A DNA stretch of 64,000 bases from a candidate division CPR2 bacterium GW2011_GWC2_39_35 (GCA_000995065.1 LBWX01000001.1:159563-223562), one strand, 5' to 3'; numbered from the stretch's first letter, positions 8,250 to 19,981 are shown. A program made the numbers and translations. Notes: generated from the sequence alone by a model not told the origin.

Positions 8250-8285
8250 AAAATACTAATTTATGCTAAACTAAATTAGTATTTT
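8250..8285. repeat. perfect 14-bp AT-rich inverted repeat aaaatactaattta / taaattagtatttt with an 8-nt spacer
   Basis: Direct reading. Sits ~30 bp upstream of tRNA-Gln. Confidence 0.7.
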
Positions 8286-9900
8286 AAAGTTGTTTACTGT
8301 TTCCTGCTACCTGATTATGGGGAGTCGCCAAGCGGTAAGGCACTGGGTTCTGGTCCCAGCATTCGGGGGTTCGAATCCCTCCTCCCCAGCCAAAGGGGAC
8401 GCACCCCGGCTGAAAGTCGATAATTATGCAATAGAAAGGCGAAATCTCGGAGTTCGAATAACGTTCATCTTGCCATACCAGTCCGGATGGAAATATCGAA
8501 CTCAAGAGAATTCGTGTTTGATCCAGGTTGGAATTAGCAAAGGTCTGTGACAAGTTTTCGAACTTACTTCTTATAAAGTTAGTTATATCTTCAAGATTAT
8601 ATTTACCAATAAGCTCATCATTTTTAGTTACTTGAATATCTTTTATTTTCTCTTCTAACACCTTATTCTGCTCTTTAAACATCTCGTCGGAATAAACACC
8701 CGATAGATTCTTTTGTATAAGCGCTTGGCGTGTCCCATACAGCTTCTTTAACTCAATATCGGCATCCTCTCGTCTCTTTTGCAGCGTTGAGATCCTCTGA
8801 TAATACGTTTTCTTCAGAAAGGTATTAAATAGCTCTAAAGTCTCAACAGTGGGAGTTATTTGGGCTAAATAATCCATCGTTGCTAGATTTAGTTCGTCTA
8901 CAGAAAAAGACTTGCTACAGCGATTAGGGCAAAAATAATATGCATAGCGCTTTGTCTTGCCTTGAGTCCAGGCGCCCGTAAGGGGACTATCACAATGCTT
9001 GCATCTTACAATGCGTCTAAGAGGGAAGTCTGGATTGTCCTGATTCCTTCTCATAATCGGCGTAGAAATATTAGTATTCCGACCATCCAGGATAGCCTGG
9101 ACTTTGTAAAATAATTCCTCGGTGATCATGGCCGGATGTTGACCCTCAACTTCTTGGCCGTACTTTTTAGAAATAACTTTACCAGTATAGAACTTGTTAT
9201 GGAAAAGCCTGTTGATTGTTTGCGGCCTTATGGGTCCGCCTTTTTGTCTCTGAGTAACTCCTTGCTTGGTTAGGATATCCGCTATTTCCCTTAATGTTTT
9301 TGTGCCGGTAGCCACTAAATCCCAGGCTTCTTTTATCTTGTCAGAAGTTGCCGGATCTTTTATTGCATAGCCGTTTTGATTAATATACCCAAGCGGTACA
9401 TATGCTGCGAGTCCGGCCTGAAACCTTGCTCTAAGACCATTCCGGCTTCGTTCACCTCTAACATCATTATCCATTTGAGCAAACCCGGCCAGCATTGTTT
9501 CCACAAATTTCTCTGTGGGGCTATTACCTGTTGGTTCAGTTGCTGAAACTAATTTAATATCACATTCAGTCAGTTTTCTTCTTATTACTAAATAATCTGC
9601 CGTTTCCCTGGAAATGCGATCAAGACGATACACAATGACGGCTGCAATTTCTCTTTTTTGCTTCCTACAAAACTCTAGCATTTCAATGAGAGTCGGGCGG
9701 CCATTGATGGTTTTTGCTGACCGTCCTTCTTCTTTAAAAACCTGCAAAACATCAAAGCCTCTGTTTCTGGCATCTTTCCTGCATATGTCTTCTTGTGTAC
9801 CTAACGAATAATTCTCAACCTGGTCCTCACTTGATACCCGAACATAAATTACTGCCTTCTCAGGTCTTAATGCGGTTTTTCCAAAGTTTATTTGGCTCAT
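8284..9900 (-). CDS. large serine recombinase (resolvase N-domain + recombinase domain + zinc-ribbon/coiled-coil)
   Basis: N-terminal AVIYVRVSSEDQ catalytic-Ser motif. Recombinase domain and CxxC...C region. 538-aa ORF. The last ~45 codons run antisense through tRNA-Gln and the 24-bp repeat, so the true C-terminus is uncertain. Confidence 0.8.
   Translation of the reverse strand: MSQINFGKTALRPEKAVIYVRVSSEDQVENYSLGTQEDICRKDARNRGFDVLQVFKEEGRSAKTINGRPTLIEMLEFCRKQKREIAAVIVYRLDRISRETADYLVIRRKLTECDIKLVSATEPTGNSPTEKFVETMLAGFAQMDNDVRGERSRNGLRARFQAGLAAYVPLGYINQNGYAIKDPATSDKIKEAWDLVATGTKTLREIADILTKQGVTQRQKGGPIRPQTINRLFHNKFYTGKVISKKYGQEVEGQHPAMITEELFYKVQAILDGRNTNISTPIMRRNQDNPDFPLRRIVRCKHCDSPLTGAWTQGKTKRYAYYFCPNRCSKSFSVDELNLATMDYLAQITPTVETLELFNTFLKKTYYQRISTLQKRREDADIELKKLYGTRQALIQKNLSGVYSDEMFKEQNKVLEEKIKDIQVTKNDELIGKYNLEDITNFIRSKFENLSQTFANSNLDQTRILLSSIFPSGLVWQDERYSNSEISPFYCIIIDFQPGCVPFGWGGGIRTPECWDQNPVPYRLATPHNQVAGNSKQL
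8318..8392 (+). tRNA. tRNA-Gln (anticodon CTG)
   Basis: Manual cloverleaf fold. Acceptor UGGGGAG/CUCCCCA with U1:A72 as in bacterial tRNA-Gln. D-stem GCC/GGC. Anticodon stem CUGGG/CCCAG with loop UUCUGGU. T-arm GGGGG-UUCGAAU-CCCUC. Discriminator G. Encoded CCA. Confidence 0.8.
8392..8415. repeat. 24-bp direct repeat copy 1 (aaaggggacgcaccccggctgaaa), candidate att core
   Basis: Identical 24-mer at 19809-19832. Copy 1 begins at the last A of the tRNA-Gln CCA. Contains the GGGG-ACGCA-CCCC hairpin. Confidence 0.8.
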
Positions 9901-10048
9901 TTAACCCTCCCTTATTAGCTCCTTCAATGTTTTATTATTAAAAACCTGTCTTTCATATTCATTAAGCCAACATTCCAAGAGGTATTGAAATTCAGTAAGA
10001 AAGGAATCAAGATCTTCATCTGATAGCATACTAACGGCTTCTCCCATG
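9901..10048 (-). pseudogene. 3' remnant (49 codons) of a gene split by the IS481-like insertion; stop overlaps the recombinase ATG (TAAATG)
   Basis: Reading minus-strand 11139-11604 and 9901-10076 across one copy of the 12-bp duplication restores a continuous ~210-codon frame. Confidence 0.45.
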
Positions 10049-10076
10049 ATTGTCCGAGCCTTTTGAATCCGATTAT

Positions 10077-11126
10077 GGTACAGGGTCTAGACATTTAGGA
10101 CACTAAAATCTAAGTTTGCTTTCTCATAGCCCTCTAAACTTTTAAGGTATTCAAGTGGTGTTTTGTTAGACAAAGATTCATGGGGTCTGTAAATATTGTA
10201 CTTAACACAGTTTTCTGTGTTCAACTTCTGTAGCTTCAATATATCACTAAAGCTATCTAGTTTTGAATACACTTCCCTTTGATCGGTTCGGTGGCTTCTC
10301 TCAACTCGTCCATTGATGTTGGGACTAGCTGGAGGGATGAGGATGTGATCAATGCCTAGCTTCTGTAATAGCTCATCTAGCGGATGAGTTCTTTTAATCT
10401 TTAGGAAGTGATTGTAGGTAAACTCCGTACCATTGTCTGTTTGGATAATCTCTGGTACAAAAGCCGGTAAAAAGAACCGCCTAGCCTTAAGAACAAAATC
10501 AACTGTGTTTAAGGGAGTGATATTGTCATAGATATATTTAAATTTAATTCTGGTAGCACAATCGATGATGGAATATTGATAGGCTTCTCTTTTTAGGTGC
10601 TTTACATCCAATTGAAGCCTTTCCCCCGGATAGTAGGGATAATCCCAATAATTTCTACTTATGCGTTTCTTCTTGGGTTTTTTCTTAATTAACCCTAGCC
10701 TATGTAGGTTGTTGTTAATCCCTCGATCAGAAACCTTGATGCCATAATCTCTCTCCAGCACAAATTGGATCTTGGCTTTGCCCCAGTTATTCTCCTGTCT
10801 TAGTTTAATAATTAGTTCAATGATATCCTCATCATAGGACCTCGGGTTTGTTAAGGGTTTTTTGCTTTTGTCGTAGAGGCTCTTTTGACTTTTACCTGAT
10901 TCAACCCATCTTTTGTGCCAGTAGTAATATGTACTTCTTTCAATACCATAATATTTACAAGCTGCTTTAGCCGATCCTAATTCCTTGGCTTTTTCAAACC
11001 AAGCGAGCCGGAGCCTAGCTCCGTAAATGGTTAATTGTTTCTGGGTCATCTTGTATCTCACTTTTAGTCCTCTCTATTGTTTAATATTCTACTAAAAGTG
11101 TCCAACATGTCTGTACCCTGTATAAT
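10077..11126 (-). mobile_element. IS481-family insertion sequence (~1050 bp) with ~28-bp imperfect terminal inverted repeats and 12-bp target-site duplication
   Basis: TIRs GGTACAGGGTCTAGACATTTAGGACACT (left) versus the reverse complement of AGTGTCCAACATGTCTGTACCCTGTATA (right). Direct repeats gaatccgattat at 10065-10076 and 11127-11138. Confidence 0.7.
10087..11061 (-). CDS. DDE transposase, IS481 family (rve integrase core)
   Basis: N-terminal HTH region, QTDNGTEF and NGRVERSHRTDQRE motifs of the rve DDE domain, 324 aa. Confidence 0.8.
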   Translation of the reverse strand: MRYKMTQKQLTIYGARLRLAWFEKAKELGSAKAACKYYGIERSTYYYWHKRWVESGKSQKSLYDKSKKPLTNPRSYDEDIIELIIKLRQENNWGKAKIQFVLERDYGIKVSDRGINNNLHRLGLIKKKPKKKRISRNYWDYPYYPGERLQLDVKHLKREAYQYSIIDCATRIKFKYIYDNITPLNTVDFVLKARRFFLPAFVPEIIQTDNGTEFTYNHFLKIKRTHPLDELLQKLGIDHILIPPASPNINGRVERSHRTDQREVYSKLDSFSDILKLQKLNTENCVKYNIYRPHESLSNKTPLEYLKSLEGYEKANLDFSVLNV

Positions 11127-11604
11127 GAATCCGATTATCTACTTGACGTTCAGAAAAGGTTTGCACTAAAGAGTTAAATGACTGTCTAGGGCTAAAGGGG
11201 AGTTCAAAAGATCTTTTCCCAGTTGCAAATTCAGTGTTCTTTGGCACACTTGCACCATTTGTAAACACGCCTGGCCTGTCTAAAACATTTGTTGTACTTG
11301 TTTCCATTGCAAACTCCTTACTATGGTTATATTCATAGTCTACTATGGGTATATCCACAGTGTCAAGGGGATAATTTGAGATCGTTTTAGTCTCGTTTAC
11401 CTGTTTCTTTAGCCCTGTTTTTAGCCTTTCCTTTCCCATGTCTTTTTCCTTTCTTTTAAAAAATGCGTGCTTTTGATACCAGACACAAATAGGTGAGGAA
11501 GCAAGCGTAGTCAAAACTGGAGCTCCCCACCGGAAGAACGAGTTTGACGACGCTTTCCTCGCCGTATAATCCAAACCCAAAAGCACTTCTTTTAGAAATT
11601 CCAA
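11092..11604 (-). pseudogene. hypothetical gene, 3' end interrupted by the IS insertion (last 11 codons and the stop come from IS/TSD sequence)
   Basis: The ORF terminates inside the IS right end. See reconstruction with 9901-10048. Confidence 0.45.
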
Positions 11605-11650
11605 GTCTTAAAGAGTGTTATTAAAACGTTATGACTATGACCAAACTTAA

Positions 11651-11679
11651 TTGAATCTTAAGCGATTTAAGAGTATAAT
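11651..11679 (+). promoter_or_regulatory. sigma70-like promoter TTGAAT-17 bp-TATAAT for the cargo operon
   Basis: Direct reading ~40 bp upstream of the first cargo ORF. Confidence 0.45.
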
Positions 11680-11720
11680 GAAGCCAAAATTAAGCAATCG
11701 TTTTGGTTTAGGAGAATATA

Positions 11721-11954
11721 ATGGAAAAAGACGAAATCCTTGTTGCCGAGTTTACTGCTCCAGAATTAATGCTTGCTTGTCAGAAAGCTAAGGCAATTGT
11801 TACTGATATGGGCGGCGTACTTTCCCATGCTGCTATAGTTAGTAGAGAGTTAAAGATCCCTTGTGTTGTAGGTACTCATACAGCCACTAAAGCTTTAAAA
11901 AATGGCAATAAAATCTTAATTGACTTAAATTCTGGAACAGTTCAAAAGATTTAA
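11721..11954 (+). CDS. stand-alone PEP-utilizing-enzyme mobile (phosphohistidine swivel) domain protein
   Basis: TDMGGVLSHAAIVSRELKIPCVVG matches the swivel-domain signature with the conserved His. 77 aa. Confidence 0.6.
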   Translation: MEKDEILVAEFTAPELMLACQKAKAIVTDMGGVLSHAAIVSRELKIPCVVGTHTATKALKNGNKILIDLNSGTVQKI

Positions 11955-12016
11955 ATTAAGTAAAATATTAAGAATCTAATCTCGAAGTTACTTCATGAAT
12001 AAAAACGAGGAATGAA

Positions 12017-12688
12017 ATGAATACAAATCCATATGCAAAAAGAATATTAATTTTCGGAGACTCAAATGTCTGGGGCGATATTCCGCTTCAAGTCGGAACT
12101 AGGCTACCTGCCAATGTTCGCTGGACAGGGGTTTTACAGAATATGCTTGGAAATGATTATGAAGTCATTGAAGAAGGTTTAATAGGCCGAACAACAAATG
12201 TTGATGATCCATTTCCAGGTTTTGAAGACAAAAACGGAAAAGATTATCTTTTTCCTTGTTTAAGGTCTCAAATTCCGCTTGATTATGTTATTTTACTTTT
12301 AGGAAGTAATGATTTTAAGAAAGTTTTTAACCGAACAGCAAAAGATGTTGCTAAAGGTATTGATGAGCTCTTAACGCTTACAGAAAAATACGCTGAAAGA
12401 GACGGGGTTAAAGCAAAAATTCTTTTAATATCTCCTACCTATATCAAACCGAAAATCGAAGAAGTAAAACCTCATTTTTCAGGCTCTCCTGAAAAATCAC
12501 TTGAGTTGGGAAAAGAATTAGAACAAGTAGCCAAAAAACATCAATGCGGATTTATTAACTTGGCAGAATTTATTGAACCAAGTGATCTTGATAGTATTCA
12601 TTTGGAACCTGAATCACATAAAATAGTGGCCCAAAAGGTTTTTGAATTTTTAAAGAAGTCGAGGAATAAGCATGAAGCTAAAAGATAA
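12017..12688 (+). CDS. SGNH/GDSL-family hydrolase
   Basis: Block I GDS motif (IFGDSNVWG) and LLGSND block. Confidence 0.65.
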   Translation: MNTNPYAKRILIFGDSNVWGDIPLQVGTRLPANVRWTGVLQNMLGNDYEVIEEGLIGRTTNVDDPFPGFEDKNGKDYLFPCLRSQIPLDYVILLLGSNDFKKVFNRTAKDVAKGIDELLTLTEKYAERDGVKAKILLISPTYIKPKIEEVKPHFSGSPEKSLELGKELEQVAKKHQCGFINLAEFIEPSDLDSIHLEPESHKIVAQKVFEFLKKSRNKHEAKR

Positions 12689-13394
12689 ATATGCAATTGT
12701 AACAGGAGCCTCGACAGGAATTGGCAGGGCTATTGCTGTCCAATTTGCCAAAGAAGGGGCTTTTGTGGCTTTGGTAGCAAGAAGAGAAGATAGGCTGAGT
12801 GAAACCAAAAGAATGATTGAAGAAAATGGCGGCAAGGCTAAAGTTTTCATTACTGATTTAAGCAACATTGAATCTGTAAATAAAATGATAGGTGAAATTA
12901 AAAGCGATACTATAAGAATAGATATTTTAGCAAACATTGCCGGTATTTGGCATGGCGAGGATGAGGTTTATGCAGATACCGATTTTGAAAAATTTAGCCA
13001 AAACGTAATTTTAGACACTTATGATGTTGGCATTACTGCTCCAACACTTTTAGCACACGCATTTATTCCTTTAATGCCTAAAAGGGGTAAAATATTAAAT
13101 TTATCTGGCACTTTTGAATCCGGAGCTAAGGGATGGCTGCCTTATTATGTTTCTAAAAAAGCTATCGAAGATTTAACTGTTGGTTTATCTCAAGAATTAA
13201 CTGACAAAGACATCCAAGTAAATTGTATTTCTCCTTCTGATACGGCAACCGAGGAATATAAAAAATACTTTCCCCAATACATTAAAGATGCCATTGAACC
13301 AGAAGAAATAGCTAAAGAAGCCGTCAGATTTTGTTCTTCTGAGAGCGATGATATTACTGGCACCATTAAAGTAATTAAAAAGATGGGGGTTTAA
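12672..13394 (+). CDS. short-chain dehydrogenase/reductase (SDR)
   Basis: TGASTGIGRAIA Rossmann motif and YYVSKKA (YxxxK) catalytic motif. Confidence 0.8.
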   Translation: MKLKDKYAIVTGASTGIGRAIAVQFAKEGAFVALVARREDRLSETKRMIEENGGKAKVFITDLSNIESVNKMIGEIKSDTIRIDILANIAGIWHGEDEVYADTDFEKFSQNVILDTYDVGITAPTLLAHAFIPLMPKRGKILNLSGTFESGAKGWLPYYVSKKAIEDLTVGLSQELTDKDIQVNCISPSDTATEEYKKYFPQYIKDAIEPEEIAKEAVRFCSSESDDITGTIKVIKKMGV

Positions 13395-13395
13395 A

Positions 13396-14793
13396 ATGAA
13401 TAAACTAATCTCAACCAATCCTGCCGATAACTACACCAAAGTTGGTGAAGTAGAAATTTCAACCGATGAAGAAATTAAGGAAAAAGTTGCTAAAGCCAAT
13501 GCAGTTAAGACTATTTGGAAAGAACTTGGCGTTGATGGAAGGGTTAAACTACTAGAGCCAATTCGTGATGAATTTAAGACTCGAACTAATGAAATTGCTG
13601 AGCTAATTAGTTTAGAAACAGGCAAAGCAATCACAGAAAGTATATCCGAAGTAACTCGTTACGCTGAGGAGTTAACTTGGTTTTTAGAAAATGGTCCCAA
13701 AGCTTTAGCAGATGAAATAACACTAGAGGATAGTGAATCCTTGCATAGAATTAAGTACGAACCTTACGGCGTAGCAGCAGCCATTGCTCCTTGGAATTTT
13801 CCATTTGGAATGATGGTTTGGGGAGTTTTTCCAAATTTAGTTGCCGGTAATACTGTAGTTTTTAAAACCTCAGAGGAATCACCACTAACGGGTAAGTTAA
13901 TTGAAGAGATAATGTTAAGCCACAATCTACCGGAAGGTGTTTTTGCCGAAGTTTACGGTGCTGGTGATGTTGGCAAGAAACTCACAGAAAGTGATATTAA
14001 CTTAATTTGGTTTACGGGTAGCACCAGAACCGGAAAAGCGTTATACAAAACAGCAGCCGAGAAGTTTATCAAAGCTGTTCTTGAAATGGGAGGCTCCAAC
14101 CCTTGCGCTGTTTTTGAGGATGTTGATGTTTCCAAAACTGCTCCTGTCATATTCAATGGACGATACCGAAATAATGGTCAGGTATGCAGTGCTCTTAAAA
14201 GACTAATTGTACATGAAAACATTGCTGATGAACTTATATCTGAGCTTAAGAAAATCATTGAAAGCCAAAAGGTAGGAAATCCTCTTGATCCGCAGACTAA
14301 TTTAGGGAGTTTAGTCGCCAAAAGACAAAAAAACCTACTTGAAGAACAACTTAAAGATGCCTTAGACAAAGGCGCTAAAATAGCTGCCCAAACTAAACTC
14401 CCCGAAGGTTTAAAAGGTGCTTTCTTTGCTCCTACCTTACTGACTGATATTACTAAAGATATGAGAGTTTGGCATGAAGAAGTCTTTGGCCCCATTTTTC
14501 CATTAGTAACATTTAAGACAGAAGAAGAAGCCATAGAATTAGCTAATGATACTATCTATGGTCTCGGGGCAAGGGTAATGTCGGCTGATAAACATCGAGC
14601 TGACAGGGTGGCATCCAAAATAGATGCCGGTTCGGTAGCAATAAATACCGAATCAAGGTTTTGTCCTTGTGATCCTTTTGGTGGCTTTAAAAATTCTGGT
14701 CTAGGGCGTGAGCGTGGGTATGCCGGTCTTCAGGAGCTATGCCAGATTAAGGTTATTCAAGCATCAAATGATACTATATATACTGAGGCATAA
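13396..14793 (+). CDS. NAD(P)-dependent aldehyde dehydrogenase
   Basis: 465 aa. FTGSTRTGK, the EMGGSNP-type Glu region and the catalytic-Cys region (GQVCSA) typical of the ALDH superfamily. Confidence 0.85.
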   Translation: MNKLISTNPADNYTKVGEVEISTDEEIKEKVAKANAVKTIWKELGVDGRVKLLEPIRDEFKTRTNEIAELISLETGKAITESISEVTRYAEELTWFLENGPKALADEITLEDSESLHRIKYEPYGVAAAIAPWNFPFGMMVWGVFPNLVAGNTVVFKTSEESPLTGKLIEEIMLSHNLPEGVFAEVYGAGDVGKKLTESDINLIWFTGSTRTGKALYKTAAEKFIKAVLEMGGSNPCAVFEDVDVSKTAPVIFNGRYRNNGQVCSALKRLIVHENIADELISELKKIIESQKVGNPLDPQTNLGSLVAKRQKNLLEEQLKDALDKGAKIAAQTKLPEGLKGAFFAPTLLTDITKDMRVWHEEVFGPIFPLVTFKTEEEAIELANDTIYGLGARVMSADKHRADRVASKIDAGSVAINTESRFCPCDPFGGFKNSGLGRERGYAGLQELCQIKVIQASNDTIYTEA

Positions 14794-14795
14794 AT

Positions 14796-15554
14796 ATGGT
14801 AAACGCATCAAAAACTATCGGAATAATTGACTTTAATCCAGATCAAAACCCTGATCGAAGGCAATATGTAAAACGGATTAGTGCTTTACTTTCTGGCAAT
14901 GTAAGTGGTGAAGGCATATTCTTTAGGGAAGTAGACGATTTAAATAAATATGATGCTCTTATTCTATCGGGCTCTAAGCTTATCTCTAAACATTATCAAG
15001 AAATGGTTAGATCAGGGCAAGGATTGGAAGGTGATTATATTTGGATTGATAGGGCAGTTCAAGAAATAGCCAATTTTAAGGGGCCAATTTTTGGTATTTG
15101 CTTTGGTTCTCAAATCTTAGCACATATATTTGGTGGTGAAATCGGAAGGTTGGATAAAACCGAGGCTGGATATTTGCTTCACGAACTAACAGATGTAGGA
15201 TTAAATGATCCTATTTTTGGAAAGTTAGGTAAAACTTTCTGGGCTTCCCATTACCATATTAACTATGTCAAAACTTTACCTGATAATCCAAATTTAGCGT
15301 CAGATGTTCTTGCAACCAGAAATGGATATATCCATGCCTTTCGAATAAAAACTGCTTCTGGCGTAACTCACTATGGAACCCAACCCCATCCAGAAATGTC
15401 TAACCCAAAAGATGCTGTTTTCCTTGTCGAGGTAAATAAGGAACGGCTAATTGAAGATATTGGCGTTGAGGAATGTAATAAAGCTTTAGAAATTCCAAGT
15501 AATGCTAGTTTTGAATTTCAGAATGTAATTAAAGAGTTTGTAAAAAGAATATAA
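14796..15554 (+). CDS. class I glutamine amidotransferase-like protein
   Basis: GICFGSQ nucleophile-elbow Cys and downstream HPE consistent with the Cys-His-Glu triad. Confidence 0.65.
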   Translation: MVNASKTIGIIDFNPDQNPDRRQYVKRISALLSGNVSGEGIFFREVDDLNKYDALILSGSKLISKHYQEMVRSGQGLEGDYIWIDRAVQEIANFKGPIFGICFGSQILAHIFGGEIGRLDKTEAGYLLHELTDVGLNDPIFGKLGKTFWASHYHINYVKTLPDNPNLASDVLATRNGYIHAFRIKTASGVTHYGTQPHPEMSNPKDAVFLVEVNKERLIEDIGVEECNKALEIPSNASFEFQNVIKEFVKRI

Positions 15555-15563
15555 AGGAATAAT

Positions 15564-16151
15564 ATGGACGAAACACAAAGAATAATCGATTTTATACACT
15601 ATGCAGAGAAGCTGAAAACAGAACTAAGAAAAGCTTTTAAAAGTGATGAGAGCCGAGAAAGTGTAGCTGAACACACTTGGCGAGTTTCTTTAATGCTACT
15701 TTTGATAGTGCCTAAACTAAAAATAGAGGTTGATTTTCTAAAGATTCTTAAGATGGCGATTATTCATGACTTAGCTGAAATTGAAGCAAAGGATGTGCCA
15801 GTATTAGAATCTATAAACAACCATGAAAGGCTAAGCATAAAAGAAGAACAAGAGTTGGCAGCAATGAATAATATTAGAGCAATGCCGGGAGCTGATGGAC
15901 AAGAAATTTATGATCTATGGTCAGAGTATGAGGAACAAAAAACCAATGAAGCCAGGGCTTTAAAAGCTATTGATAGACTTGAAGGGCAGTTTCAATTCTT
16001 GAGCGAAAATGTAACTACTTTTACCGAACAAGACCAAGAAGCAATTAAGAAATTATTAGAAGAAACTACCAAACTATCTAAAATTGATCCATTTATCACT
16101 AGGCTAGACGAATTAACAATGGAAGATAGGCAAAATAGGATTAAATTCTAA
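15564..16151 (+). CDS. HD-domain phosphohydrolase, YfbR-like 5'-deoxynucleotidase family
   Basis: ESVAEHTWRVSLM ... IIHDLAEIEAKD HD motifs. Confidence 0.7.
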   Translation: MDETQRIIDFIHYAEKLKTELRKAFKSDESRESVAEHTWRVSLMLLLIVPKLKIEVDFLKILKMAIIHDLAEIEAKDVPVLESINNHERLSIKEEQELAAMNNIRAMPGADGQEIYDLWSEYEEQKTNEARALKAIDRLEGQFQFLSENVTTFTEQDQEAIKKLLEETTKLSKIDPFITRLDELTMEDRQNRIKF

Positions 16152-16153
16152 GA

Positions 16154-16903
16154 GTGGTAACGATGAAAGATGAAATTTCAACAAAAAAAGCTCTTGGCAT
16201 TTTGGCAAAAACTTTGCCACAAATTATTTATACTACTATTCTTGGCCTTACCCAAGTCAACCCTGTATGGTCAATTCTTTTTTACACCGGATTAGGAATG
16301 GTTAATGCCTGGGGATCCTTCGGCCAGGTTAGAATCAATGAGTTAGTTACATTTATAGATAAACATAGAGATCAGTTCCTTCCAGATATTATTAAGAGTG
16401 AGAAATTTAAATCTATCTTTCTAAATATCTTAGATGCTTATTTTAAAGAAACATTAGAAGAAAAAAGAAAGTTGCTAAGAAATTATTTATTAAATGTCGG
16501 AAAAGGTATAGAGAAAGACTTTGATTATCATACAAAATTAATGACCGTTTTGAATCAGATCACGTTTGATGAGCTTAAGGTTATCTCAATTTGGAACGGT
16601 AAATTGCAGGATAAGTTTGTTGAGAAAAATTCAGAAATTGGCTACACAAGGGATAATATTGAAGAAAAAATGACAAATCTTAATGCGGGACAAATCGCAT
16701 GGGCGTTAGGAAGAGAGGAAAAAGGTCAAAAAATTATGAGAAATATCAATTTTCTTGTGAAATCACTGGGTAATTACGGACTTTTAGATGTGAGAGAGTC
16801 TACACCAGTTATATTTGACAGTGAAAATAATAACTCTACTGTTGTTGTAGATGGAATAAGTGATTTCGGTAAAGCATTCCTAGGCTTTTTAAAGGAGGAC
16901 TAA
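16154..16903 (+). CDS. hypothetical protein
   Basis: 249-aa ORF in the operon. No recognisable motif. Confidence 0.4.
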   Translation: MVTMKDEISTKKALGILAKTLPQIIYTTILGLTQVNPVWSILFYTGLGMVNAWGSFGQVRINELVTFIDKHRDQFLPDIIKSEKFKSIFLNILDAYFKETLEEKRKLLRNYLLNVGKGIEKDFDYHTKLMTVLNQITFDELKVISIWNGKLQDKFVEKNSEIGYTRDNIEEKMTNLNAGQIAWALGREEKGQKIMRNINFLVKSLGNYGLLDVRESTPVIFDSENNNSTVVVDGISDFGKAFLGFLKED

Positions 16904-17263
16904 ATGGCAGAGATCGGAACAATTCAAAGATTTAGAGCTTCTCATGGGAAAGATAACCATGAGCATGATTTTAAAGTTGTAGTGGTTCTAGGTGGGCCAA
17001 TCGATAACGATACAGGGTATGTTTCTGGTGTTGATCATCATGACCTTATTGATAAATTAAAACAAATTCTGGGAAAGCTTGAGGATCAGAATTTAAATCA
17101 AATCCTCAAGGATGATGGTTCAAAATCCTCTGGTATGGAATCTATTGCTACTTATGTTCTTAAAAGATTGTTACCCGATTTACCCTCTTTAAAACTGGTA
17201 AAAGTTTGGGAAACAGATGATAGATATGCAATTATCTATCCAGGGGATATTGGAAATGTCTAA
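16904..17263 (+). CDS. 6-pyruvoyl-tetrahydropterin synthase / QueD-like fold protein
   Basis: His-containing N-terminal segment (HGKDNHEHDFKVVV), TGYVSGVDHHDLID, and ESIATYVLKRL...VKVWETDDRYAIIY resembling the PTPS C-terminal signature. 119 aa. Confidence 0.5.
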   Translation: MAEIGTIQRFRASHGKDNHEHDFKVVVVLGGPIDNDTGYVSGVDHHDLIDKLKQILGKLEDQNLNQILKDDGSKSSGMESIATYVLKRLLPDLPSLKLVKVWETDDRYAIIYPGDIGNV

Positions 17264-17705
17264 TCAAACTAAAAAGCAAACATCAATCATAATTGGATTA
17301 AAGGATAACAAAGTTCTCTTGGGTATGAAAAAGAGAGGTTTTGGCGAAGGTTATTGGAATGGTTTTGGCGGTAAAAGAAACAAAAGTGAAACCATGACCG
17401 AAGCTGCTCTTAGGGAAATTGAAGAAGAAGCAGGAATTATTCCCACCGACTTAAAAGAAGTTGGAATAATTGAATTTGATACTTTTACGACTCATATTTA
17501 TACCTTTTCCAACTATGAGGGAAAATTAACCGAATCCGAAGAAATGAAACCAAAGTGGTTTAATAATAATAGTCTCCCTTATGACAAAATGTGGGAAGGC
17601 GATAATATTTGGTTTCCCTTAGTTTTAGATGGCAAATGTTTTGATGCCGAATTTATATTTGAAGGTAAAAATTTAACCGAATGTCATATAAAGGTTAGGA
17701 AATAG
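17256..17705 (+). CDS. Nudix hydrolase, MTH1/NUDT1-like (oxidised purine dNTP pyrophosphatase type)
   Basis: Nudix box GGKRNKSETMTEAALREIEEEAGI. Overall resemblance to MTH1 (LGMKKRGFGEGYWNGFGG ... MKPKWF ... MWEGDNIWFPL). ATG overlaps the upstream stop (ATGTCTAA). Confidence 0.75.
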   Translation: MSNQTKKQTSIIIGLKDNKVLLGMKKRGFGEGYWNGFGGKRNKSETMTEAALREIEEEAGIIPTDLKEVGIIEFDTFTTHIYTFSNYEGKLTESEEMKPKWFNNNSLPYDKMWEGDNIWFPLVLDGKCFDAEFIFEGKNLTECHIKVRK

Positions 17706-17848
17706 AGATTGAACACAAATATTGTTCTAAATGACTTTAAATAAATCCTAAAGTTAGCATCAATTTTGACAGCCATAGATTATGGTCCGATAAAAAAGTT
17801 ACCCTTTTTTAAAAAGATAAGTTAAAATTAAGTGGTTTGGAGAACTAA

Positions 17849-18220
17849 ATGAAGTACAAATACACGGCTCAAGAAGCCAAACATATCAATAAATATGGTG
17901 CCGATTTAACTGTTTTCGGCCAAGTTGCGCCAACTGCAAGTATTGTTCGTATTTCGGTTGAAGAAGGGCATTTTGAAGAGTTTAAGCATGATGAAAGCAC
18001 TTTTATTTACTATGTTATCAAGGGTAATGGCATCTTTGTTCTTAATGATGAACAAGTGGAGGTTAAGGCTACGGACTTGATAGCAATCCCACCAAAAACC
18101 CGAATTCATTATTTTGGAAAAATGGAAATGCTGCTTGTGGTAACTCCTGCCTTTGACCCAAACAAAGAAGGCCACGTTCGGATGATCGGCAAAGAAGAAA
18201 ATCCATTAAAAAGAAGATAG
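17849..18220 (+). CDS. cupin-like small protein
   Basis: 123 aa. Beta-rich composition with a conserved His/Glu spacing. Weak call. Confidence 0.35.
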   Translation: MKYKYTAQEAKHINKYGADLTVFGQVAPTASIVRISVEEGHFEEFKHDESTFIYYVIKGNGIFVLNDEQVEVKATDLIAIPPKTRIHYFGKMEMLLVVTPAFDPNKEGHVRMIGKEENPLKRR

Positions 18221-18313
18221 TGCCCATTTTAACCCGAGCATCTTGTTCTAAGAAGTATAATTCGCTATTTTTGTTTTTATCGCTTAAAATAAAATTGATT
18301 AAGATTAGGATAT

Positions 18314-18835
18314 ATGAAATTTGTCGATACTAACCTCAAAGTACCTTTGGTACTGAAAACAGAAAGCTTTACTCTTAGGCCGTTGTCTCCGAAATATACA
18401 GAAATGGATTATAAGGCTATTATGTCTAACTTGGAACATCTGCAGGGCACCTTTGGTCCTTCCATAAAATGGCCGACAGCCGATCTTACGTTAGAAGAAA
18501 ACCAGTATGACTTGGAATTTCATCATGACCTTTTTATGAAGAGAGAAGAGTTTAGTTATATTGTTCTTGATCCGAAAGAGAAGTATTCAAAAGGTTGTGT
18601 GTACTTAGTTCCTTTGCTGCATCCGGATTATGACGTTTTAGTTTATTCTTGGGTTACCGCCAAAGAGGCAAAAAAGAATTTTCATCCTGTTCTAATTAAA
18701 ACTATTAAAGAGTGGTTACAAACATCCTGGCCGTTTAAAAAACCAGTTTTCCCCGGAATAACCATCTCTTGGGATGAATGGGATAAATGTCTGGGAGCAA
18801 ATGCAAATAATCCTACTCTCAAAACCCAAAATTAG
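18314..18835 (+). CDS. hypothetical protein (possible GNAT-like fold)
   Basis: 173-aa ORF. Weak resemblance only. Confidence 0.3.
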   Translation: MKFVDTNLKVPLVLKTESFTLRPLSPKYTEMDYKAIMSNLEHLQGTFGPSIKWPTADLTLEENQYDLEFHHDLFMKREEFSYIVLDPKEKYSKGCVYLVPLLHPDYDVLVYSWVTAKEAKKNFHPVLIKTIKEWLQTSWPFKKPVFPGITISWDEWDKCLGANANNPTLKTQN

Positions 18836-18941
18836 CAAAACCTAATTTTAATAAGAAATTACTCTAACTAGAAAACCAAGTGGTTTCGGACATTCTTTTC
18901 ATAAGTCTACTAATGCTATTATCCTGTTATTTAGTAGTGAA

Positions 18942-19190
18942 ATGTGGTATATTATCAGCAATATGACAAACGATAATAATGAGACAATCCGAAAAGAATT
19001 GGGTGAGAAAATAAAAAAGGCTAGAGAAAAAGCCGGACTAACCCAATCAGAAGTAGCTGCTGCCGCAGATATTAATGTTAGTTATTATGCTCAAATCGAA
19101 AGGGGGGAAGTAAACCCCTCATTTGAAAAACTTCACAGTATTACAAAAGTCCTTAAATTAAAGTCGTTTGATATTCTTAAAAAGAGTTGA
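18942..19190 (+). CDS. XRE-family helix-turn-helix transcriptional regulator
   Basis: LTQSEVAAAADINVSYYAQIERGE HTH_3 signature. The true start may be the internal ATG at 18963. Confidence 0.7.
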   Translation: MWYIISNMTNDNNETIRKELGEKIKKAREKAGLTQSEVAAAADINVSYYAQIERGEVNPSFEKLHSITKVLKLKSFDILKKS

Positions 19191-19191
19191 T

Positions 19192-19704
19192 ATGATTTGC
19201 AATAATGTTAACAATATTAGTTTTATTGGTATGGCTGGAGTCGGTAAAAGTTATTTCAGTAATAAGCTAATTAACTTCGGATATGAACACATTAAAGTAG
19301 ATGAACTTATTACCAATTTAGCCAACCTGAAGGGTGTCAACAAAGAAACGATTTCTGACAGTGAGTTTATAAAACTCGAGGAGCAAGCCATTCTTAACTT
19401 AAAAGAAGTATCCGAATCGGCAATTGATACCGGAGGCAGTGTTATATACTCTAATGAGGCTATGGAGTTACTTAAAGAAATTTCAGTTGTAGTATATCTT
19501 AAAGATTCCTTGGAAAACATTAAAAAGAGATTTGATGTCAGAGGCGAACCTCATTTGATCGGAATTGAAGGCAAGACCTTCGAAGAATTATTTCAAGAAA
19601 GATCTGAACAATACCAAAAATATGCAGACGTTATAATAGATGTTACAAAGATAAGCGATATTGAAGAAATTCTTTCAATAATCGGATCAAAGTCCCAAAA
19701 ATAG
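19192..19704 (+). CDS. P-loop kinase, shikimate-kinase-like fold
   Basis: Walker A GMAGVGKS. Overall collinearity with the AroK family (VDEL..., DTGGSVIYS, LID-like region). The track ORF starts at 19168, overlapping the regulator. Confidence 0.5.
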   Translation: MICNNVNNISFIGMAGVGKSYFSNKLINFGYEHIKVDELITNLANLKGVNKETISDSEFIKLEEQAILNLKEVSESAIDTGGSVIYSNEAMELLKEISVVVYLKDSLENIKKRFDVRGEPHLIGIEGKTFEELFQERSEQYQKYADVIIDVTKISDIEEILSIIGSKSQK

Positions 19705-19808
19705 AAATTCCACAGCTGCAACCACTAACTATGTAACTTCCTTAAAAGCTCTCATTATCCTATCAACCCACTCTAAAAAGAGTTCGAAAGAAAGTGCATC
19801 CAGGCAGC

Positions 19809-19832
19809 AAAGGGGACGCACCCCGGCTGAAA
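19809..19832. repeat. 24-bp direct repeat copy 2 (aaaggggacgcaccccggctgaaa)
   Basis: Identical to 8392-8415. Confidence 0.8.
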
Positions 19833-19836
19833 TATA

Positions 19837-19862
19837 AAAAGACCTTGAAATGGGTCTTTTTT
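19837..19862. terminator. bidirectional rho-independent terminator AAAAGACC-ttgaaatg-GGTCTTTTTT between convergent genes
   Basis: 8-bp stem, A-run and T-run on either side. Confidence 0.6.
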
Positions 19863-19981
19863 GAGCTCTATTAAATTTTATAAAATAGCAAAATTTGTTC
19901 TCAAAATATTTTGAGGAAAAGGGGATTCGAACTCTTAACCCCAACCAGCTATTGGAATTCAAAATACTAGCATTAAAGAGA

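Follow-up and report, generated by a model that had tools for sequence, protein, structure and literature searches.

Tyrosine integrases classically target tRNA genes, and serine integrases are, to our knowledge, usually assumed to avoid such sites. Here, a stretch of 64,000 nucleotides from the candidate division CPR2 bacterium GW2011_GWC2_39_35 (GCA_000995065.1, LBWX01000001.1:159563-223562) from Rifle groundwater was analyzed, in which the gene of a large serine recombinase (LSR) overlaps the 3' end of a tRNA-Gln gene; this whole stretch is referred to as the window, and all positions are counted from its first letter. Positions 8391-19808 are best explained as a mobile element that its own LSR inserted right at the 3' terminus of tRNA-Gln, a reading that is given a probability of roughly 0.8. 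As an island the element is ordinary in principle; not ordinary are the targeting of tRNA ends by a clade of serine integrases from bacteria of the candidate phyla radiation (CPR) and the swap of the C-terminal tail of the enzyme on integration. No description of tRNA-targeting serine integrases in CPR bacteria was found in the full-text literature, which is no proof that none exists.

The serine integrases of phages and of integrative and conjugative elements (ICEs), such as phiC31, Bxb1, A118/LI and SPbeta SprA, resemble the CPR enzymes in their set of Resolvase, Recombinase and zinc-ribbon domains, in their short attachment (att) sites with a very short core and in an integrase gene that adjoins attP. 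They differ in their targets, which are protein-coding or intergenic, whereas the CPR family targets the 3' terminus of genes for tRNA or transfer-messenger RNA (tmRNA). Also unlike the phage and ICE integrases, the CPR family has its attP within the integrase open reading frame (ORF), with the C-terminal tail of the enzyme being exchanged on integration. For the LI integrase, Rutherford and colleagues (in 2013) reportedly described a distal motif that is shifted 5 bp outward in attP compared to attB, which is said to be a hallmark of serine-integrase sites.

SCCmec elements, which are mobilized by CcrAB, are serine-recombinase islands at the 3' end of rlmH/orfX; the gene is preserved, direct repeats of at least 15 bp flank the island, and SCC often occurs in tandem or composite arrays that contain att-like junctions. 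Insertion by a serine recombinase at a housekeeping gene's 3' end and the occurrence of tandem arrays are common to SCCmec and the CPR family, but target class and hosts are different, and the ccr genes lie inside SCC without spanning attP. Moreover, a core of 4-8 nt is the norm in the CPR family and a long repeat is exceptional, unlike the direct repeats of SCCmec. The tRNA islands of tyrosine integrases (P4-like islands, the Islander/TIGER catalogues) are alike in the tRNA 3' target, the adjacent integrase gene, the restoration of the tRNA and tandem accretion; in contrast to these, the CPR family uses a serine enzyme, repeats a far shorter segment of the tRNA and crosses over at the discriminator/CCA and not at the anticodon or T loop. 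Integration or excision is also known to alter the product or expression of an element gene, namely for SSV1-type archaeal integrases, for the integration-dependent immunity of mycobacteriophages and for the joint promoter of tnpX in Tn4451, because attP lies within or beside a gene of the element in these cases. However, SSV1 and BPs are tyrosine systems and Tn4451 shows a promoter effect, whereas the CPR serine integrase would lose a tail of about 20-35 amino acids.

Attachment sites of the tRNA-Gln element and of related loci

A first-pass annotation, made from the sequence of the window alone, had proposed an integrative island at tRNA-Gln bounded by a perfect 24-bp direct repeat, with a large serine recombinase gene directly inside the left copy. 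Scanning the window confirmed that the 24-mer AAAGGGGACGCACCCCGGCTGAAA occurs in exactly two copies, both on the plus strand (8392-8415 and 19809-19832); no third copy is present in the 64 kb with up to 3 mismatches, and shuffled sequences lead one to expect 0. The true exact repeat is 25 bp long (8391-8415 and 19808-19832), as c8391 and c19808 both match, and it grows to CAGC(C)A if an indel of 1 nt (one missing C) is allowed. The two edges of the element consist of the following features:

8284-9900, minus strand: gene of the LSR in its integrated-state reading, 538 amino acids (Pfam, PHROG)
8318-8392, plus strand: tRNA-Gln(CTG) (ARAGORN), integration target and B arm of attL
8387-8390, plus strand: attL core CAGC, made up of acceptor end, discriminator and C74; putative crossover region
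8391-8415, plus strand: repeat copy 1 (25 nt), start of the P' arm of the element, which supplies the CA of CCA
19729-19808, minus strand: detached 3' end of the integrase gene (reconstruction), coding for the tail CLDALSFELFLEWVDRIMRAFKEVT with the stop codon at 19729-19731
19771-19804, plus strand: P arm of attR (ctctaaaaagagttcgaaagaaagtgcatccagg) with T-loop-like GTTCGAA, 39.6 bits
19805-19808, plus strand: attR core CAGC (comparison of attL and attR)
19808-19832, plus strand: repeat copy 2 (25 nt), a copy of the P' arm where the host B' arm is expected
19836-19862, plus strand: hairpin with a 10-bp stem and U-run in the host flank, presumed original terminator of tRNA-Gln (B')

In the tRNA-Gln gene, the discriminator is G8389 and CCA is encoded at 8390-8392, which agrees with the earlier statement that copy 1 of the 24-mer starts on the A of CCA. 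Core and 24-mer together fold as a hairpin, CAGC-aaa-GGGG-acgca-CCCC-g-GCTG, and the minus strand of copy 1 encodes FQPGCVPF(G) of the integrase. The assignment of the latter as an LSR is borne out by the Pfam domains Resolvase (PF00239, 6.9e-31, residues 16-163), Recombinase (PF07508, 7.8e-15) and Zn_ribbon_recom (PF13408, 6e-06, 27.0 bits at a cutoff of 25.3) and by a PHROG match to integrase (4e-88). In an alignment of 21 sequences Y19, R21 and the catalytic S23 are invariant, as are the zinc-ribbon cysteines C300, C303, C324 and C328, and residues about 340-440 are conserved. The gene is intact and encodes a bona fide large serine recombinase. About the first 498 amino acids are encoded by the element and the last ~40 (WGGGIRTPECW...) by the antisense strand of tRNA-Gln; in the last ~44 codons, the 24-mer (FQPGCVPF), gCCAaa (FG) and the tRNA (WGGGIRTPECW...) are read as reverse complements.

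A protein search with the LSR revealed more than 1000 homologues, the best 120 of which are 57-67% identical and 507-615 amino acids long. Their alignment is conserved up to '...GYSNT.ISPFY.AILD.Q...V.FG...GIRT', beyond which the tails diverge, and 'GIRT' is the antisense translation of the T-arm of the tRNA (GGATTCGAACC). From species-representative genomes, 80 homologous LSR loci were fetched, nearly all of which are labelled Patescibacteria/CPR. In 69 of the 80, the LSR gene meets or overlaps, at its 3' end, the 3' end of an oppositely oriented tRNA or tmRNA gene, and several of the others leave the contig with a partial tRNA end still visible. The targets are tRNAs for Glu, Ser, Pro, Leu, Ala, Met, Arg, Gly, Lys and Phe as well as one tmRNA. 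Across the family, the sequence after the tRNA end follows the pattern CCA-AA-NNN-GAC..., and from this shared pattern it follows that the read-through of the LSR gene is a property of the family; the running of the recombinase ORF through copy 1, noted before as a caveat, is correct and no accident. The integrases of this family are placed at the ends of tRNA genes with fixed distance and frame.

To phage integrases the LSR is only 25-28% identical, and matches to solved structures are distant. No close relatives were found in IMG/VR, among the INPHARED phages or among the PLSDB plasmids, so that the element cannot be recognised as a phage or a plasmid. The family member at the tmRNA 3' end (L056, 11527-11955) fits recognition of T-arm and acceptor end. 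Five loci are titled 'uncultured Gammaproteobacteria' (L079, L087, L092, L097, L098) and the contig of one (L068) is labelled Bacillota, which probably reflects errors of labelling or binning and not the true hosts. In many P' arms of the family (e.g., L031, L052, L063, L079, L099) a hairpin follows directly on the tRNA within the first ~30 nt and lies within the integrase coding region of the other strand; it may act as a stand-in processing or termination signal for a tRNA with a displaced terminator.

Direct repeats of at least 12 bp near the tRNA end are essentially absent from the 69 homologous loci, which rules out long repeats as a feature of the family. The far ends of the elements were located by a search in which the final 6 nt of the tRNA of each locus had to follow a T-loop-like motif. 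In at least 12 loci, a conserved P arm of ~34 nt (consensus AGCCAAAAGGTGTTCGAATGAAAGTGCATCAAGG) was found 5.5-11.3 kb from the tRNA in one constant orientation, directly followed by a core of 4-8 nt that matches the tRNA end (GCACCA, CTACCA, CCGCCA and others), and a terminator is often present in the host sequence beyond the attR core. A P-arm matrix trained on 15 loci, with the window left out, gives 39.6 bits for the P arm of the window versus 14.6 for its next-best site, and among 50 shuffles the highest score is 20.0. What the first-pass annotation had described as a weak echo of the tRNA 3' region to the left of copy 2 turns out to be this conserved recombination arm. The strong terminator it had placed next to copy 2 is present as the 10-bp stem and U-run at 19836-19862 (-22.9 kcal/mol, z = -3.3), but it was not called by a simple consensus scan.

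With the end of the core written as a slash, attL of the window reads tRNA...CAGC/CAAAGG... and attR reads P arm-CAGC/AAAGG..., and the same architecture is found in 12 other loci. CAGC is the sole stretch that matches in register between attL and attR of the window element, so the 24-mer is not the att core; beyond CAGC the repeat at attR is a second copy of the P' arm. The single P arm with its CAGC in the window delimits the element to ~8391-19808 (11,418 bp), that is, to about 11.4 kb, or about 10.36 kb without the nested insertion sequence (IS) and its target duplication.

Islands of tyrosine integrases typically show long, perfect direct repeats at the 3' ends of tRNAs, and the first-pass annotation had preferred a tyrosine-type event or an element resembling a repetitive extragenic palindrome (REP) to the footprint of a serine recombinase. 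That the 24/25-bp repeat is the att core of a tyrosine-type integration, with the serine recombinase as a passenger, would suit a repeat that is perfect and unique in the window, but is very improbable: Pfam scans of the major ORFs in 8284-19704 revealed no tyrosine recombinase, copy 1 is integrase coding sequence that is homologous across the LSR family, the P arm of the family precedes copy 2, and the other loci have cores of 4-8 nt and no repeats of at least 12 bp. The 24-mer could also be a dispersed REP-like hairpin whose two copies are coincidental, without any island. It does fold as a hairpin, but it is limited to two copies in 64 kb even with 3 mismatches, one of them coding, and both copies sit at att positions as defined by the family; exact matches are moreover missing from the GTDB species representatives and JGI contigs searched, collections that apparently do not hold the source genome. 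This explanation is hardly credible either, and the attL/attR architecture of the window matches that of the LSR family.

Integration by the LSR at the tRNA end would proceed as follows. The run shared by attL and attR is 4-8 nt long in the 13 elements compared, and the minimal cores end at the first C after the discriminator (CAGC in the window, GCAC in L052 and L087, CCAC in L090, CGAC in L094). As minimal cores end at C74, the exchange is placed at about D73/C74; in the window the crossover would fall inside the 4-nt CAGC, about the discriminator/C74, and the exact dinucleotide is assigned provisionally. attB would consist of the tRNA 3' end (B arm), the core and the terminator of the tRNA (B'), and attP of the P arm, the core and the P' arm inside the 3' end of the integrase gene. 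The predicted junctions are ...AAAGTGCATCCAGGCAGC/CAAAGGGGACGCACCCCGGCTGAAAGTCGATAATT for attP and ...ATCCCTCCTCCCCAGC/AAAGGGGACGCACCCCGGCTGAAATATAAAAAG for attB. After integration the tRNA would be intact, with the final CA of the CCA encoded at attL and a replacement hairpin both apparently derived from the element.

From TTCGAA to the discriminator, counting along the sequence gives 19 nt for the T-loop of the tRNA, as against 24 nt for the P arm. The resulting offset of 5 bp agrees with that known between attB and attP half-sites of serine integrases, and the T-loop is therefore probably the motif recognized by the zinc-ribbon domain. At 8450-8464 (~+58 from the tRNA end in most loci), the GYSNT codons read GGTGTTCGAATAGCC on the tRNA-sense strand, which is T-loop-like and nearly equals the 10-mer GGTGTTCGAA of the P arm, and its third codon positions vary little; this +58 motif may be an extra binding site or merely reflect shared ancestry or coding conservation. 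Also T-loop-like is GGGGATTCGAACTC, found at 19915-19960 on the other strand of the host flank, ~90 nt to the right of copy 2, where ARAGORN calls no tRNA and the matrix no P arm.

attP lies inside the integrase gene, whose reading frame runs on across the core. Joining position 19808 of the window to 8391 yields an ORF ending ...VPFG-CLDALSFELFLEWVDRIMRAFKEVT, followed by the stop codon. Across 34 distinct attR/attP sites, the LSR frame continues through the core into the P arm as (A/G)LDAL(C/S)FEHLL(G/A)WL and is free of stops over 12-35 amino acids; the tail reconstructed for the window conforms to this consensus. Three metagenomic contigs (L130, L133, L135) show attP-type junctions in the order P arm-core-P'-LSR; in L130 the LSR ORF ends with the conserved tail (...FGGLDALPFEHLLAWLDQLRQAFEE...), and likewise in L133 and L135. 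Because the tail is encoded across the core, integration would detach the last ~26 codons of the integrase gene, leave them at attR 11.4 kb away and let the gene read into the antisense tRNA instead. The excised form would hence encode the full-length enzyme with its LDALxFEHLLxWL tail and the integrated form a tail-swapped enzyme. We infer that this swap may control the activity or the direction of the integrase.

Backbone genes, nested insertion sequence and cargo

Between its two edges, the element carries the following features:

9924-10075, minus strand: C-terminal fragment of orfU, ~50 amino acids (reconstruction after removal of the IS)
10076-11125, minus strand: nested IS of 1050 bp with a DDE/rve transposase gene (10087-11061) (Pfam, terminal inverted repeats, target duplication)
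11138-11604, minus strand: N-terminal fragment of orfU (reconstruction after removal of the IS; tblastn)
11721-18835, plus strand: variable cargo operon (Pfam, NCBIfam)
18942-19190, plus strand: XRE/HTH_3 regulator, a backbone gene of the family (Pfam, 1.8e-15)
19168-19704, plus strand: shikimate-kinase-like P-loop kinase, overlapping the helix-turn-helix (HTH) gene (Pfam SKI, 1.2e-15)

The backbone of the family comprises the LSR, orfU and the XRE regulator, the remainder being variable cargo. Intact orfU encodes ~157 amino acids, of which the C-terminal ~70 form the conserved part. Directly upstream of the LSR gene, tblastn detects orfU homologues in 79 subject loci at E<=1e-3 and in 77 at E<=1e-5; no family match was obtained for orfU in Pfam and PHROG. 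It is a candidate directionality or accessory factor. The XRE gene is matched in 22 family loci, the best eight being 57-75% identical, and is no more than about 700 nt away from the P arm in those loci that were checked for it (L026, L037, L053, L062, L075). All five traits of the CPR tRNA-end LSR family, namely an LSR gene overlapping a tRNA 3' end, orfU next to it, the XRE gene and the P arm at the other end and the tail encoded across the core, are present in the window, with orfU interrupted by the IS. The elements of the family span 5-12 kb, and no recognisable phage or conjugation genes were found in them.

The nested IS and the cargo that had been annotated inside the segment are both confirmed, the former by its rve transposase, its terminal inverted repeats (~29 nt) and the 12-bp target duplication TGAATCCGATTA at 10064-10075 and 11126-11137, the latter by Pfam matches. 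The transposase has the domains HTH_32, rve and rve_3, and IS481-like is a candidate label. The window contains one copy of the IS, and its insertion in orfU is found in all nine assemblies that reach it (L001-L006, L008-L010). In one ENA scaffold (L003, ~14393-14511, corresponding to ~11060-11100 of the window) Ns and differing sequence occur at the end of the IS. A biological origin of this 87-bp difference was rejected, as it coincides with a scaffold gap of Ns; it suggests that the genome contains several copies of the IS, which mislead assembly.

The cargo operon is headed by a gene for a stand-alone phosphoenolpyruvate (PEP)-utilizer 'mobile domain' of 77 amino acids (11721-11954). Further genes encode a GDSL hydrolase, a short-chain dehydrogenase/reductase (SDR), an aldehyde dehydrogenase, a GATase, an HD_3/YfbR-like protein, an unknown protein of 249 amino acids, a PTPS/QueD-like protein, a NUDIX protein, a cupin and an unknown protein of 173 amino acids. 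Eight of the cargo genes have no tblastn match in other loci of the family, and SDR and NUDIX have distant ones (25-32% identity). PADLOC detected no defence system in the cargo, and no match to NCBIfam exceeds the curated cutoff. The kinase gene, whose NCBIfam matches also lie under the curated cutoffs, is not common to other loci of the family and may be cargo or accessory. The overlapping pair of XRE and kinase genes (18942-19704) resembles fused HTH-kinase regulators (NCBIfam PRK08154, below cutoff).

Host context and probable history of the insertion

The nearest relatives of the host are distant, with a glutamyl-tRNA synthetase (GluRS) 57-63% identical to that of the window. They keep the gene order up to gltX and the tRNA-Gln gene, and have neither the LSR nor the 24-mer. 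A terminator hairpin follows their tRNA-Gln after at most about 10 nt and matches the hairpin after copy 2 of the window. No downstream gene order is conserved, and the right boundary of the element consequently rests on the P-arm model of the family and on this terminator; the downstream order differs in three lineages, which makes tRNA-Gln a variable spot. In the CPR2 relative (L101, 11461-12559; L102, 10658-11801), ~1.1 kb separate gltX and tRNA-Gln, compared to 168 nt in the window, and this gap holds an ORF of 135 amino acids and one of 80 amino acids with a GIY-YIG domain. A tRNA-like fragment, cctcctccctagcca, is found past the tRNA at ~12830 of L101; the region is variable in every lineage.

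Within the population of the source organism the LSR cluster holds a single sequence, and contigs with an identical GluRS or NUDIX gene show the occupied arrangement only. A Logan contig that ends inside tRNA-Gln (L007) was considered as a polymorphism and rejected: a branch in the assembly graph is the simpler explanation, since the tRNA-Gln of the relative L102 is almost identical and L102 co-occurs in one of the same samples (JGI 3300025309).

These data bear on whether the arrangement of LSR and tRNA is old, immobile and vertically inherited. In that case, an element of LSR and orfU (plus IS) would be all that remains, the operon at 11.7-19.7 kb would belong to the ordinary chromosome, and the P arm and copy 2 would be left over from a different, decayed element. 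The fixation in all assemblies with neither attB nor attP seen, the disruption of orfU by the IS, a cargo that looks metabolic and is untypical of mobile elements, and the lack of a sharp step in GC content all suit such a history. However, an XRE gene and a P arm are present at the far end in the right orientation and at 11.4 kb, next to a family range of 5.5-11.3 kb; the detached stretch that codes for the tail is unbroken and keeps register with the core of the window LSR, the attR core CAGC matches tRNA-Gln, and relatives carry none of these genes after their tRNA-Gln. A vertical origin is therefore improbable compared with integration of the whole 11.4-kb element.

The long repeat at attR of the window is atypical for the family. 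Elsewhere in the family, the P' motif is missing from B' arms unless these lie at an internal junction of a tandem or accreted element. Internal P-core-P' junctions occur in L064 (8 nt identical) and in L071 (~35 nt of a decayed LSR 3' end), two P arms are present in L072, and in L037, L053 and L062 a non-tRNA, partly P-arm-like sequence replaces the tRNA at the LSR 3' end. Most economically, the extra P' sequence of attR is what is left of a second or earlier element of the same kind that once lay alongside and has otherwise been deleted, an origin that is the likeliest of those considered and for which the chances stand about even. Alternatively, attB might naturally have carried the sequence, or gene conversion or selection for the hairpin might keep the two copies identical; the perfect identity (24/24) and a hairpin that could serve as processing or termination signal at both sites would be in line with this. 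It is nevertheless rather unlikely, as the tRNA-Gln flanks of relatives lack the sequence, as the sequence fits the P' consensus of the family (CCA-AA-NNN-GAC) and codes for integrase, and as the B' arms of other loci show the motif at internal tandem junctions only.

Several observations weigh against an integration by the LSR as described here. Neither an empty site (attB) nor a circular junction (attP) was found: the 19 public assemblies of the population are all occupied (19/19) and hold attL and attR, and no assembly contains a P arm-core-P'-LSR junction of the window element. The downstream gene order differs among all three lineages and no empty site could be aligned. The attP-type contigs L130, L133 and L135 could represent tandem arrays and not circles, and the dyad symmetry of the P/P' consensus is weak (at best 12/27 positions versus ~7-8 in other registers). 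Finally, an origin of the extra P' copy as a vestige demands that attR have one C less than a simple model would give. As the IS splits orfU and no assembly contains an empty site or circle, the element of the window may now be immobile. On balance, the proposal of an integrative island at tRNA-Gln, with the integrase gene at its left edge, a nested IS and cargo, is supported by the att architecture of the family.

Meaning for CPR bacteria and their serine integrases

For the window, the boundaries of the island are settled, and both the 24-bp repeat and the read-through ORF are accounted for. Beyond it, the analysis delineates a class of small islands, 5-12 kb long and with a backbone of three genes, in CPR bacteria, whose mobile elements are poorly known, and provides a case in which integration would alter the C-terminus of the integrase itself. 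A tentative, broader model is that serine integrases throughout the CPR use the universally conserved T-loop and acceptor end of the tRNA as attB half-site, that attP carries a T-loop mimic 5 bp further out and lies inside the gene of the integrase, and that the tail swap together with orfU sets the direction of recombination; we regard this as possible, though somewhat less probable than not. It amounts to a testable model of a serine integrase that reads the end of a tRNA gene through a T-loop motif and the 5-bp offset of attB and attP. The enzymes of the family are candidates for site-specific insertion at conserved sites, and if this T-loop/tail-switch model is true, they would be natural tools for DNA insertion at tRNA genes in organisms that so far are without genetic tools.

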